Assembly: GCF_024521635.1 (NCBI RefSeq)
Contig: NW_026250412.1
Location: forward strand, 682,001-746,000
From: Tricharina praecox
Taxonomy: Eukaryota
Length of the DNA: 64,000 nt
Direction: 5' to 3'
The position numbers were made by a program, and so were the translations under genes. The notes below the pieces were generated by a model. The model saw only the letters and a list, made by a program, of their open reading frames with translations. It did no database searches and was not told where the DNA came from. Shown piece by piece: positions 15,001 through 20,300 of the stretch; position 1 is the first letter of the stretch, and each line of letters opens with the position of its first letter.

Positions 15001-16176
15001 TTACACCCCCAACGTCGCCGCGGGCCTCGACGCCAGCGCCAACACGCCCTCGATGATGCTCTTTCTTGCCGGCTCACTGGCGGGCTTCGCACCTGCCAGG
15101 TAACAGAGCCACAGGGCCTTAGCCACGCGCGGATCCCTAATGCTACCCAAATTCTGCACCGTCTGCTCCTCACCCTTCCCGCCGAGCTTACCATCGTTGC
15201 GACCCGTCGGATCGTAGTACACACCGAACACGCCGGCCGCGTCCCGTGCCAGCAGCAGCGTCTTCTGCTTGGGCACGCTCTTCTTGAACGCGCCGCCAAA
15301 CAGCGCCTTGAACTCTGCCAGCGCGGCCGTGAAGGCGTCGTCGTCGTACGATTCATTCTTGGTCGAGCGCGCTTGGATCCCGCGGACCCAGCCGTCGCGG
15401 AGGTGCTGGAAGTCTGCGCCGCATTAGCCCCTCTTCCCCCTCCCTACTGCGACGGCGACAGAGAACAAACCAGTATTCCTCGTCGGCACGATCCTGAACA
15501 AGCTCCGGAACTGCGCGCCGCCGGCGAGCACCTCCTCCCACAGCTTCTCGCCCTCGACGGGATCAAGCAGGCGCTTCCTGAGCTCCTCCTTCTCCAGCGC
15601 GGTGATCGAGCTCGCTGTCGGATCAACCCTGCGCACGAGCGCAGTCTGCACCGCCGCCAGGTCATCAACATGCACGTAGAAACCGACGACATACACCTGG
15701 ATGCTGAGGAAGCTGACAGTCCTGATCCCGAGGCCGAGCAGCGCGTACTCGGCATTGTCGGGGGCAGTGACGCGGGTGGGGAACGGCGGGACGCTGGTAG
15801 TGCCCGAGTCGACGAGGCCGTCGCCGAGCTGCAGGGCGACGGGTGTGGCAGGATCGAAGCCGGCGGTTGCTGGTGCAGGCGCTTCGGTCTTGTGGGCGGG
15901 CTCGTTGGCGATCAGGTAGACTAGCGCGACGAGGCCGACGCCGCCCGCGCCGAGCATCCAGCGGCGCCGCTGCATGGAGATTTCCTCCTGCGAGTGTTTT
16001 CCGGCCGCCGAGGACGGCGAGGTGGGGCGTTTCGGTGGCGGCCGCGGGCGCACGGCAGTCGGTGGCTTGGGGAGGTTGTAGAGGCCGTGCAGGTCCTGGC
16101 GGACGGTGGCGTAGCCGCGGCGGCAGAGCGCCTGGCGTGGGCAGAGCTGGAGGAGCGCGCGGGTCGTGGTGGCCAT
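15001..16176 (-). CDS. AIM18: Aim18/Aim46-like mitochondrial chalcone-isomerase-fold protein; intron 15470-15414
   Basis: Arg-rich presequence MATTTRALLQLCPRQALCRRGYA, one TM segment, motifs LLGLGIRTVSFLSIQVYVVGFY, RIVPTRNTDFQHLRDGWVRGI and LWLCYLAGAKPASEPARKSI. Confidence 0.88.
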
Positions 16177-16631: not shown

Positions 16632-17312
16632 TTATGCAGATTCCCTGAGGGCCTTGTCCAAAGCATCCAAAGCACCCTGGATCTCCCTGACGACCTCTTT
16701 CCGCCTAGCTCTGATCTTGGGGTCTTCCGTCTCAACTCCATCAAGCTTCAGCAGCTCTCCCATGATGGTCTCCCCCAGTCTCCGATGAATGTCGGCCCTC
16801 TTCTCTGGCGATTCCGCTCCATCACCGGCGATGAAATCGTCAACGAGCGGGAAGAGCGTGGCGACGACATGATCACGAACAGCCTCGATCTTCTCGGAGG
16901 GACCGAGCTTCACCTTCGGGGGCGGCGGCAGGGTAGCAGCAGCAGTGTTGGGCCCGGGCCTCGACGGCGGAGCAGAATTCGTGCCCACGGCGAGGATCTT
17001 GGCACCGTGCTCGATACCCAGCGTCTGCAGTGTGACGTTGTCGTCCTTAAGCTGGCGGCCGGCACAGATGAGCGAGAGGCGCTTGACATCGACACTGGTG
17101 ATCTCGGCAACCTTGTCACGAAGGTGACCGACGTTGAGGGCGTGCGTCGCAATCGTGTTGGTGGGGTACTTGAAGAGGTACTCGTTCGCGCCGTGCTTGA
17201 CCGTCAGAACGTCCTCCGGTCTGTAGGGATCGACCGAGTTATCGCCGGAGATGGGGCCGGCGTACACCGGGGGTGGGCCGCCGCCACCGCCGAGTCCCAG
17301 GAAGCGACGCAT
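16632..17312 (-). CDS. BAG-domain Hsp70 co-chaperone with ubiquitin-like domain (Bag101/Bag102/BAG1-like); first AUG at 17312, frame open upstream to 17576
   Basis: UBL-like segment VGHLRDKVAEITSVDVKRLSLICAGRQLKDDNVTLQTLGI and BAG motif HRRLGETIMGELLKLDGVETEDPKIRARRKEVVREIQGALDALD. Confidence 0.9.
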   Translation of the reverse strand: MRRFLGLGGGGGPPPVYAGPISGDNSVDPYRPEDVLTVKHGANEYLFKYPTNTIATHALNVGHLRDKVAEITSVDVKRLSLICAGRQLKDDNVTLQTLGIEHGAKILAVGTNSAPPSRPGPNTAAATLPPPPKVKLGPSEKIEAVRDHVVATLFPLVDDFIAGDGAESPEKRADIHRRLGETIMGELLKLDGVETEDPKIRARRKEVVREIQGALDALDKALRESA

Positions 17313-20300
17313 TATGATGGCGGTGGTGGTGATGAAGCCGATCGAAAGGGCGAGGTGTGGGAGGAGATCGATCAATGGCTTTGGGGGCGAGTCCGGGGCG
17401 ATGTAGAGTTGGAGAGCGGCGAGCAGAGAATCGAGATTGGAGATGTATGGATCCAGATGGGGACCGATCCGTGCGAGGTAGGGAGCGAGAAGGGAGTTGG
17501 CACGCTCTATGTAGGGAGCGATGCGGATGAGGTAGTCGTGGGGTGTTGGGTGCGCCAGCTTGACGGTTGGTGTAGGTTAAAGTGGAAGAGGGGGTGGTAA
17601 TTTTTTGGCGTGGTTTGGTTGGGGGGTGGGGTGGGTCGTGTCAAACCCGTGACGTCGGGGAACTTTGCTCTACTTTGCGTGATTGAGCGACTGGGCTTTT
17701 CGTTGGCGGATTGATCCGAGGGTGTTCTCGAACAAAGAATCGAGCAGGCAGCAGTGGCGTAACGTGGTCCAAATGCAATGCACGGTAATGCGAAATCTTG
17801 GGGGGAATCGGGGGTGGCAGCCAAGAGAAGCAGTACAAATCACCAAGCAACGGGATAGCGGACGGGCAATCGCTAGAGTACTTTTGTATATCACTCCAAT
17901 CTAATCCCGAATCGAGAATAATGTCTGCTGCAGAGTTGGTTGTCGAATGCGCGATGTGATGGTGGTGATGGTGTTGCTGGTGGTGGTGGTGGTGATGAAT
18001 TCGAACGGGAGGGCTGTAGGCGCATGTGCGTATGCGGAGAAAGTGTTGAGTCTGCAGAAAGACAAAAGTGTGCGAGGGAGTGTGTGCTGTGAGGGCGATG
18101 GAATGCGTTTGTCAGGAGGAGGGACTCGGTGTCGTGAGGTGAGCGGAAGGGGCGTGACTGCAAGTGACTTTGACGCTCAGGACTCAGCACTCAGGAGTTG
18201 GCTCTTTTGACACGGTTTCCGCCCAGCGAGTCAGCCACCCTACCCTACTCTAGTGGGTGTGTCTCCCTCCCAGGCCAAGCTTTCCGGAGCTTCGGAATCG
18301 CGATATCTCATCCGCAACGAGAGTAAGCAGAGTACGATACAGTAAATTAGAGTATGATACAGTAGAGCAGAGTGGAATAGAGTAGAGCAGGTAGAATAGG
18401 GTATTGGCTCTCGGTCAGGAAGTCAATGAGACATGGCAAAAATCTAAACTCTGCTGCCTGCCGATATACCTATTTTCCAGAGCTATCGTATGTATGATAC
18501 GTATCCCGATTCGCCGGACCATTTAGAGACAAAGGCAAAGCATCTGCCGTTCGGAACACGGAACAGAAGAGGAGAGAAGTTCTGAGAAGAGAGGGAGACG
18601 AAGGATGACCATTGACCGGTCTCGCCCGAAGCCATTATTCCGGTACTCTATCAACAGAGTAGAGTAGGTAGTAGATGCCTGCCGCATCGAACAGGTGAGA
18701 CGTGTGTGGATGTGGGAGTGCACATTCCTCACCCTGCTTGGGAGTTTGGGACGGGACGAATGAAGGTCTTCGAGATGTCGGAAAGGGCGCAAGATTCCCA
18801 GCCTCAGCCTCAGCCTCAGCTTCTTCCAAGCTGCTGCCTCGTACTACTAATAAGTACTCTCATATACTTGGGCGCAGCCCGAAGGCTTGCGGCAGACAGA
18901 ACCACCGGCAGGCGACAGGTAGTGAGTCGTCGTCGCGTCTCTGCATATGTACTGTACAAACATCCGTGGCAAACGCGGATGGTGCGCATGGCCATCGCAT
19001 CTACCACTATACTACCGTATATAGTATATATCGATCAACACAGGGATGGTACTACCGGTAGGTGGTAGCTATCCCACGGCTTTCGGTGGACTCCCACGGC
19101 GCTGGCAATTTTGAGACAACGATAGTAGGTAGCGTCCCGGCGGTCCGTATCCTGCGAATGGGGGCCATTTCCGACGGTAACTATGGGCATGGTTACCGGA
19201 GCCGATAGGTAGCTTCCTGAGAGTAGAGTACATATCTGGAGTACATACCGGAGGTGCTTGCAGTTACCGCTGAATGCTACGGTATATACATTCCGCGCTG
19301 CTGCGAGTTCTCTCGTGGGTATCTGAATGGCAAAAGGGCATGCCCTTTCGTGGCTCTCCTGGCCGGTGTCTGACTCCGGGGATGGCTGACTACCGGTACA
19401 TACCCAGAGTTAGTACCGTAAGGCAGGTGATCGGCAGGAGAGGAGGAGGCAACTCGCCGATTTTGCCACATACGCAGCTCAGCTGGCGGCAGGCGGATGA
19501 TGGAATACTACTCCCCCAATCAATACCGTACTCCTCACAGACACCACCACCGCCACACCGTGTCTCTCGGAGAAACGCCTCTGCCCTGCTGCCTAAGCCA
19601 TGTCAACGCTTTTTAGATATTTAACCTGCCTTTTTGCAGCTCAATCACACAGCGCTGTGAATACCTATTGGCTCTTTGATGAGCTGGTTCGGACGATACC
19701 ACTGGAGTGGAGCAGAGTATGGCCCTCAGTAAGACGCCATCTGCCCTTCCGGTGATGTTCCACTGTCGGTGTCGCACTCCAGTCTCCATCACCTCCAAAC
19801 AACTCCCCCAATCGAGCCTCTAGGATTCTGGGTGGCGAGGGACGCTACCTGGTAATTGCAATATTCGGTGCGAGACATACTGAATTACTCGTGAATGGTG
19901 AATTCTGAACTAGGTGGGTATTCGTGTCTGGTGGTGGCCGATGAACGTTTGGTATCCTGCCAGGAGCTAAAGTGATGGAGTTTGTGTATGTGGGTTGTAC
20001 CGGTAGTCGAGAGGAGGTGTAGGCATGTGAACTTCCTCCCACCGCATCGGTCCCACATGCGGCATTCAGCGGTGCAAACCTCCAAGCCGAGACGGGGTAT
20101 GTACCTGCGGGCAAGCGCGGTTCTTCAAGTCCGAATTGGATCCGACTAAGTACCTAGCATGACGTGAATGAAGCCTCAGACTTCAGGCTTCAGGCTGACG
20201 TTGGTTCCTGCATTACTCCACTCCGGCTCGGTCGACTGTGAGACGAATCTGAATAGACCCTCGACGCCTACTAGCTAGTAGCGTTTGTACCTATGCTGAT

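Follow-up and report, generated by a model that had tools for sequence, protein, structure and literature searches.

The DNA analysed here is a stretch of 64,000 nucleotides from the Tricharina praecox genome (contig NW_026250412.1, positions 682,001 to 746,000 of the forward strand), called the window below, and the subject is a gene on its minus strand that encodes a co-chaperone of the BAG family. In this gene, the first ATG is preceded by a long open frame without ATG, which encodes a predicted membrane anchor. The original prediction for this locus had proposed that the frame is translated from a CUG codon as an N-terminal extension; its coordinates were all correct, and the peptide quoted in it matches P0001, the translation of the whole open frame. 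The features of the gene are as follows, in positions of the window, with residues numbered from the CTG.

16632..16634, minus strand: TAA stop codon of the gene.
16650..16889, minus strand: BAG domain, a three-helix bundle (PF02179, E-value 4e-19, 69 bits, cut-off 23.4).
16980..17216, minus strand: ubiquitin-like domain, UBL (PF00240, E-value 1.9e-7, 31.2 bits, cut-off 25.4).
17310..17312, minus strand: first ATG, in the context ATA ATG C, directly 3' of the transmembrane (TM) helix; here begins the soluble form of 226 aa in the annotation.
17313..17375, minus strand: predicted TM helix LIDLLPHLALSIGFITTTAII, residues 62-82, followed by MRRF (Kyte-Doolittle and AlphaFold2).
17313..17558, minus strand: AUG-less N-terminal extension of 82 codons, coding.
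17400..17543, minus strand: long N-terminal helix, residues 6-53, moderately amphipathic (AlphaFold2, predicted local distance difference test score, pLDDT, about 70-75).
17555..17561, minus strand: proposed non-AUG start AAG CTG G, with the CTG at 17558-17556, A at -3 and G(+4) at 17555.
17561-17559, minus strand: AAG codon.
17577..17579, minus strand: in-frame TAA, six codons 5' of the CTG, which bounds where translation of the extension can start.
17559..18022, minus strand: leader, non-coding, 463 nt without ATG in any frame, with indels against the related loci L001 and L002.

The open frame consists of 314 codons, running from just after the TAA at 17579-17577 to the stop at 16634-16632. 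As had been noted before, 88 sense codons without ATG precede the ATG at 17312 and are in frame with the 226-codon open reading frame (ORF) for the UBL and BAG domains. The genome's own gene model, P0004, has 226 aa and begins at this ATG (the Met of MRRF). The named relatives of the gene are Pezizomycetes (Wilcoxina, Sphaerosporella, Trichophaea, Geopyxis and others), and the NCBI models mostly begin at the same Met, as in Wilcoxina, Sphaerosporella, Geopyxis, Ascodesmis, Tirmania and Peziza. ATG is absent in all frames from 18025 to 17312. No other minus-strand gap in the window is as long as these 713 nt; the plus strand has a gap of 730 nt. The length of the ATG-free frame alone is weak evidence, because upstream of 31 of the 1159 first-in-frame ATGs of the window the frame is open and ATG-free for 88 codons or more, against a simple expectation of 0.02. 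The extension rises above chance because it is kept as coding sequence across species, as described below.

Judged by its domains, with the UBL lying N-terminal to the BAG domain, the product is a BAG-1-type UBL-BAG co-chaperone. An AlphaFold2 model made from an alignment of 26 sequences had a mean pLDDT of 79, and arranged the chain as a helix at residues 6-53, a break at APDSPPKP, a helix at 62-86, a disordered Gly/Pro linker, the UBL and the BAG domain. The beta-grasp fold of the UBL was placed at residues 115-191 with a pLDDT of about 90, and the three BAG helices at 220-243, 251-273 and 280-307 with values above 90. E263, D273 and R286 are invariant in the 26 sequences and Q294 is nearly so; their spacing resembles that of the residues of human BAG-1 which contact the ATPase domain of Hsp70.

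The segment ahead of the AUG, which had been described as TM-like, is predicted to be a TM helix. On the Kyte-Doolittle scale, no 19-residue segment of the protein is more hydrophobic than LLPHLALSIGFITTTAIIM (mean of 1.76, a prediction only), and the model has the helix at 62-86 in this place. A predicted TM segment is present in 76 of 162 homologues. Because the predicted TM helix precedes the UBL and BAG domains, the long form has the layout of Bag102 of Schizosaccharomyces pombe (TM, UBL, BAG). The helix is flanked by a charge of 0 at its N side and of +2 at its C side, and this bias is the sole support here for a location in the endoplasmic reticulum (ER) or nuclear envelope with the UBL and BAG domains toward the cytosol or nucleoplasm, as would be expected by analogy. 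The preceding helix, at 6-53, is made of 11-residue repeats of the form xPY(I/L)xRxxxLL, with a hydrophobic moment of about 0.45. Amphipathic repeats of 11 residues occur in apolipoproteins and perilipins, and since the periodicity of this helix recalls them, the region may rest on a membrane or lipid-droplet surface, not in the lumen. Copies of the repeat read IAPYIERANSL, LAPYLARIGPH and LDPYISNLDSL; P0005 has additional copies, and repeats were noted also in L007-L012.

For the comparison between species, metagenome contigs were scanned, giving 31 related loci (L001 to L031). Of these, 26 were examined and 24 reach the N-terminal region, since L020 and L030 end before it; the other five, L017, L018, L023, L025 and L028, had identity and E-value rows equal to those of examined loci. 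They were sorted into seven lineage groups: the window with L001 and L002-3; L004-6; L007-12; L015, L016 and L019 with L031; L021, L022 and L024; L026, L027 and L029; and L013 with L014. An open frame coding for the hydrophobic helix and an immediately following Met was kept in all 24 loci, and the intact AUG-less frame is common to the seven groups, down to about 26-30% protein identity.

The extension also bears the marks of coding sequence at the nucleotide level. Among the window, L001 and L002, the 82 codons gave a ratio of nonsynonymous to synonymous substitution rates (dN/dS) of 0.17-0.23 at a synonymous rate (dS) of 0.40-0.63, and third positions accounted for 21/33, 29/46 and 30/47 of the differences. 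The UBL core of the same three sequences had a dN/dS of 0.05-0.08. No indel occurs in the 246 nt of the extension, and the DNA just 5' of the CTG contains, between the window and L001/L002, many indels that are not multiples of three. In a second group, the extensions of L015 and L031 align without gaps at 78% identity, and their upstream DNA at 43% identity with gap runs of 4, 35, 2, 1 and 28, 5, 2; the L007/L010 pair was too similar to inform on this contrast. The alignment of orthologues thus has the properties that the CUG proposal had anticipated, namely an open frame, synonymous-biased changes that point to purifying selection, and a conserved near-cognate codon.

This codon lies at the 5' edge of the conservation. 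The window and 10 loci have CTG here and another 12 loci have GTG, and A at -3 and G at +4 are found in the window and in all 22 of the CTG/GTG loci, so that the good context claimed for the CTG at 17558-17556 is present and conserved. The window group and the L007-12 group share the 13-nt sequence GTCAAGCTGGCGC without a single difference, at a protein identity of only about 39%. The start region of L004 reads AAA CTG GCG, and the GTG contexts of more distant Pezizomycotina are AAG GTG GCT, ACA GTG GCT and ACx GTG GAG. In L013 and L014, a GTG with A at -3 and G at +4 opens an extension of only 37 codons, and this site may or may not be homologous to the K[VL]A site of the others. In these ORFs, CTG makes up 13-26% of the Leu codons and GTG 37-44% of the Val codons. 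Upstream of the proposed start codon, an in-frame stop is reached after 6, 7 and 8 codons in the window, L015 and L031, and in these three the AAG at -1 is the only other near-cognate codon between the stop and the start codon; L026 has no near-cognate codon in 22 codons upstream. A at -3 and G at +4 have been described as the key context positions for conserved near-cognate starts in Pezizomycotina (PMC5487733).

Between the start codon and the Met that follows the TM helix, ATG does not occur in any frame in 2883 nt from 14 representatives, against 36.2 expected from the rate in the rest of each coding sequence. L011 is the sole exception to the ATG-free extension, and the ATG in it serves as a start. 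At L011:3017-3036, a 5-nt insertion after CTG GCG CCC TC puts the CTG out of frame, so that the disrupted frame ends at a TGA after five codons, LAPSV. Through the inserted bases a new ATG also arises, which overlaps the TGA (ATGA) and is in frame with the remaining extension (MIPYADFLDPY...). As read from the sequence, an AUG has naturally taken the place of a near-cognate start in L011, and this frameshift with its compensating ATG is the only disruption of the frame found in the orthologues. In annotated genomes, an AUG is found at or beside the same motif in Lasallia (MKVAS), Trichoglossum (MANSVKVAS) and Penicillium rubens (MTLLPPKLAQ).

The proposed second start was compared as well. The post-TM Met was invariant in the first alignment. 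In the interval from -7 to +6 residues around the point where the hydrophobic segment ends, a Met is found in 67 of the 76 homologues with a TM, where about 12% would be expected from the frequency of Met. Among the database models without TM, 59 of 86 begin at this Met. Because near-cognate starts leak and no AUG intervenes, the scanning model predicts that most ribosomes would reach the AUG at 17312. For one gene of Penicillium rubens, the database holds two models, one of 394 aa with the TM extension (P0103/P0179) and one of 313 aa (P0180), the latter beginning exactly at the Met after the TM helix. A Trichophaea hybrida model of 297 aa, P0017, has the extension behind an upstream Met and lacks most of the UBL; this loss, at the junction EDLKDDNVTL, is probably a mispredicted intron.

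What the sequences show is that the extension has been kept as a coding region, that the near-cognate codon is conserved together with its context, that AUG is depleted and that a TM helix is predicted. Initiation at the CUG, the use of both starts, the topology and the location are what we infer from these observations. The gene, at 17558-16632 on the minus strand, would encode a BAG-1/Bag102-type co-chaperone for nucleotide exchange on Hsp70, an activity assigned from the sequence. Its mRNA would have a long AUG-free leader, along which some of the scanning ribosomes would initiate with initiator Met-tRNA at the CUG of 17558-17556 in its good context. The product would have 308 residues, of which the first 82 would form the long amphipathic helix and one TM helix, and the latter would hold the protein in a membrane, by analogy that of the ER or nuclear envelope, leaving the UBL and BAG domains facing the cytosol or nucleoplasm. 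Ribosomes leaking past the CUG would find the next AUG only at 17312 and make the soluble form of 226 residues. In this way, an anchored protein like Bag102 and a soluble one like Bag101 would both come from one gene. We estimate the probability of a conserved near-cognate CUG start for the anchored isoform, with leaky scanning to AUG 17312 for the soluble one, at about 0.72; the comparative tests all favour the interpretation given in the original prediction.

Several observations weigh against this interpretation. The loci are not independent samples, as they fall into seven lineage groups and some of the contigs are near-identical. Homologues that begin with an AUG ahead of the K-[LV]-A-S motif still retain its amino acids, so that part of its conservation may be at the protein level. 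In L024, an ATG in frame with the GTG lies 43 codons upstream, where the relatives L021 and L022 have a stop, and the L015, L021 and L031 groups carry out-of-frame ATGs 25-230 nt upstream, which would begin upstream ORFs (uORFs) if transcribed. The context of the main AUG is weak, with T at -3 in 8 of 14 representatives. No downstream hairpin that could aid the start was found when 83 nt of the start region were folded in 6 lineages (z from -0.34 to -1.54), and no structure was common to them. Finally, the AAG that precedes the CTG follows a TTAAC by 22 nt and could serve as a splice acceptor.

The last point leads to a rival explanation, in which the extension is translated from the normal AUG of an upstream exon that splicing joins to the AG at 17560-17559, exon 2 starts at the CTG, and no non-AUG initiation takes place. 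The TTAAC noted in the original prediction is present at 17580-17576, and together with the AG 22 nt on it resembles a fungal branch point and acceptor; an AG also stands ahead of the NTG in most lineages, as AAG, or as ACAG in L026. On the other hand, the closest ATG for such an exon is 467 nt upstream, and no credible exon or donor was found in the sequence within 2.5 kb. Only 2 of the 155 frame-compatible combinations of ATG, donor and acceptor in that range had a donor matching in at least 3 of 4 positions, the shortest possible intron would be of 500 nt with the poor donor GTTCGA, and no GT[AG]AGT or GTA[CT]GT motif occurs within 1.5 kb upstream. In L004, the AAA before the CTG leaves no AG acceptor, the frameshift and compensating ATG of L011 would be senseless if the frame came from an upstream exon, and in the Lasallia, Trichoglossum and Penicillium models the AUG directly adjoins the motif. 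We regard splicing from an upstream exon as unlikely.

It is more doubtful still that the extension is untranslated in this species, as the relic of an ancestral AUG-started extension, and that only the 226-aa soluble protein is made. This would agree with P0004 and with the NCBI models of the six genera that begin at the same Met, and an open ATG-free stretch of 88 codons is by itself not rare in the window. A relic would decay, yet the extension has the low dN/dS and the indel-free 246 nt described above beside a leader full of indels. Unlike a relic, the AUG-less frame is intact in seven lineage groups, down to about 26-30% protein identity, and the depletion of AUG across all frames would be unexpected for dead sequence. 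We consider this explanation very improbable.

Translation of the extension from another near-cognate codon, either the AAG at 17561-17559 or an ATC or ATA downstream, with the CTG/GTG kept only as part of the K-[LV]-A-S motif, is hardly to be expected either, although this motif persists in AUG-started homologues and the frame contains ATC and ATA at 9-21 codons downstream of the CTG: Leu at the site is always CTG and Val always GTG despite the 13-44% usage of those codons, L026 has ACA in place of AAG and so keeps the A(-3) but not the Lys, the contexts of the downstream ATC/ATA are poor, and AAG is among the weakest near-cognate start codons.

The leader upstream of the proposed CUG start was also compared. 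In 8 other Pezizomycete loci with enough DNA, the upstream ATG-free stretch is 325-557 nt, and L008 is ATG-free over 207 nt. The nearest upstream ATG, at 18023-18025 on the minus strand, lies in CATACGCACATG and is conserved in the window, L001 and L002. A conserved uORF from this ATG was considered and rejected, since the ATG is kept in the three sequences but the frame of the peptide is not conserved. Just downstream of it, at about 17960-18015 on the minus strand, is a microsatellite rich in CAC/CAT, which is largely deleted in L001 and L002; this region could be promoter or leader. At about 1680-1730 of L021 and in the homologous place of L024, there is an intron-like element of about 47 nt, GTAAGC ... 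ATTAAC GCAG, located about 150-200 nt upstream of the GTG, and an out-of-frame ATG is at -109. This element and this ATG suggest a 5' untranslated region (5'UTR) intron and a uORF in that lineage.

The next gene downstream of the BAG gene is on the same strand, at 15424-16175, and starts at ATG 16175 (MATTTRALLQLCPRQALCRRGYATV...). Its Arg-rich N-terminus resembles a mitochondrial presequence and is followed by a hydrophobic segment.

A CUG-started isoform is known within the same UBL and BAG family from human BAG-1, whose longest isoform, BAG-1L, has an extension bearing a nuclear-localisation sequence, not a membrane anchor. Searches in this analysis detected no similarity between the human BAG-1L and the fungal extensions, and the two non-AUG extensions probably arose independently. 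As the original prediction stated, BAG-1L starts at a CUG, and the shorter isoforms BAG-1M and BAG-1S start at downstream in-frame AUGs of one mRNA and differ in location (PMC6821271). The human mRNA uses an IRES (internal ribosome entry site) and a G-quadruplex, unlike the fungal gene as proposed here (PMC6821271).

In S. pombe, the anchored Bag102 and the soluble Bag101 come from separate genes, as the original prediction also stated (PMC3907333). Bag102 has a single TM near its N-terminus, followed by the UBL and BAG domains, and is located at the nuclear envelope/ER with these domains facing the cytosol or nucleus; Bag101 is cytosolic, and Snl1 of Saccharomyces cerevisiae has no UBL (PMC3907333). 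Snl1, too, is of the membrane-anchored type. The proposed long isoform has the same order of domains as Bag102, and, as proposed, the Tricharina gene would make both forms where S. pombe uses two genes. The TM of Bag102 is within the first 31 residues (PMC3907333), whereas in the extension described here about 60 residues of helix come before it.

Other fungal proteins are known to gain a second location through a conserved non-AUG extension, such as the peroxisomal isoform of PGD in Ustilago (PMC7214817), and near-cognate starts are described for aminoacyl-tRNA synthetases and for cpc-1 of Neurospora crassa (PMC5487733). AUG and near-cognate starts interchange between fungal lineages in dual-localised tRNA synthetases (PMC7049704). 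The fungal dual-localisation cases are alike in having a near-cognate codon in good context 5' of the main AUG, and an extension that is conserved as protein and adds a targeting signal. In those cases the signal is mitochondrial or peroxisomal, whereas here it would be a TM anchor on a co-chaperone, with the main AUG at the end of the TM helix. The comparison supports placing the locus, on its sequence features, in the known class of N-terminal extensions that are conserved, begin at a near-cognate codon and contribute a targeting element.

Two UBL-BAG co-chaperones of Pezizomycotina have been studied experimentally, and they are like the Tricharina gene in their domains but have been described as soluble. 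BcBAG1 of Botrytis cinerea, described as the only BAG gene of that fungus, has 298 aa, gave a cytoplasmic green fluorescent protein (GFP) signal, and is associated with ER-stress and unfolded protein response (UPR) phenotypes (PMC6467101). BagA of Aspergillus nidulans is described as a UBL-BAG protein (PMC6013550). The main texts of the two papers, supplements aside, mention neither a TM segment for the BAG protein nor an alternative start (PMC6467101, PMC6013550), and our literature search returned no paper in which a fungal BAG protein is given a TM isoform or a non-AUG start.

A wider interpretation is that the UBL-BAG family of Pezizomycotina, including BagA and BcBAG1, is an ancient two-isoform gene, in which CUG or GUG, and sometimes AUG, starts the form anchored in the ER or nuclear envelope, and the post-TM AUG starts the soluble form. 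The ratio of the two would be set by how stringently start codons are selected and could for this reason shift under stress, and phenotypes of the BcBAG1 type in ER stress and the UPR would be due to the isoform missed in annotation. We hold this interpretation tentatively, at a little below even odds. If it is true, many annotations of filamentous fungi would miss an anchored BAG-1-type form, as the models beginning at the post-TM Met suggest, and the experiments on BagA and BcBAG1 would have used the short form. A hidden ER-anchored isoform would then offer a direct explanation for the ER-stress and UPR phenotypes of BcBAG1 (PMC6467101). For translation biology, the family would offer a near-cognate start that is deeply conserved and varies naturally among CUG, GUG and AUG, and a striking parallel, within one protein family, to the CUG-started human BAG-1L. 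A single gene with two start codons would do in these fungi what fission yeast does with the two genes of Bag101 and Bag102.

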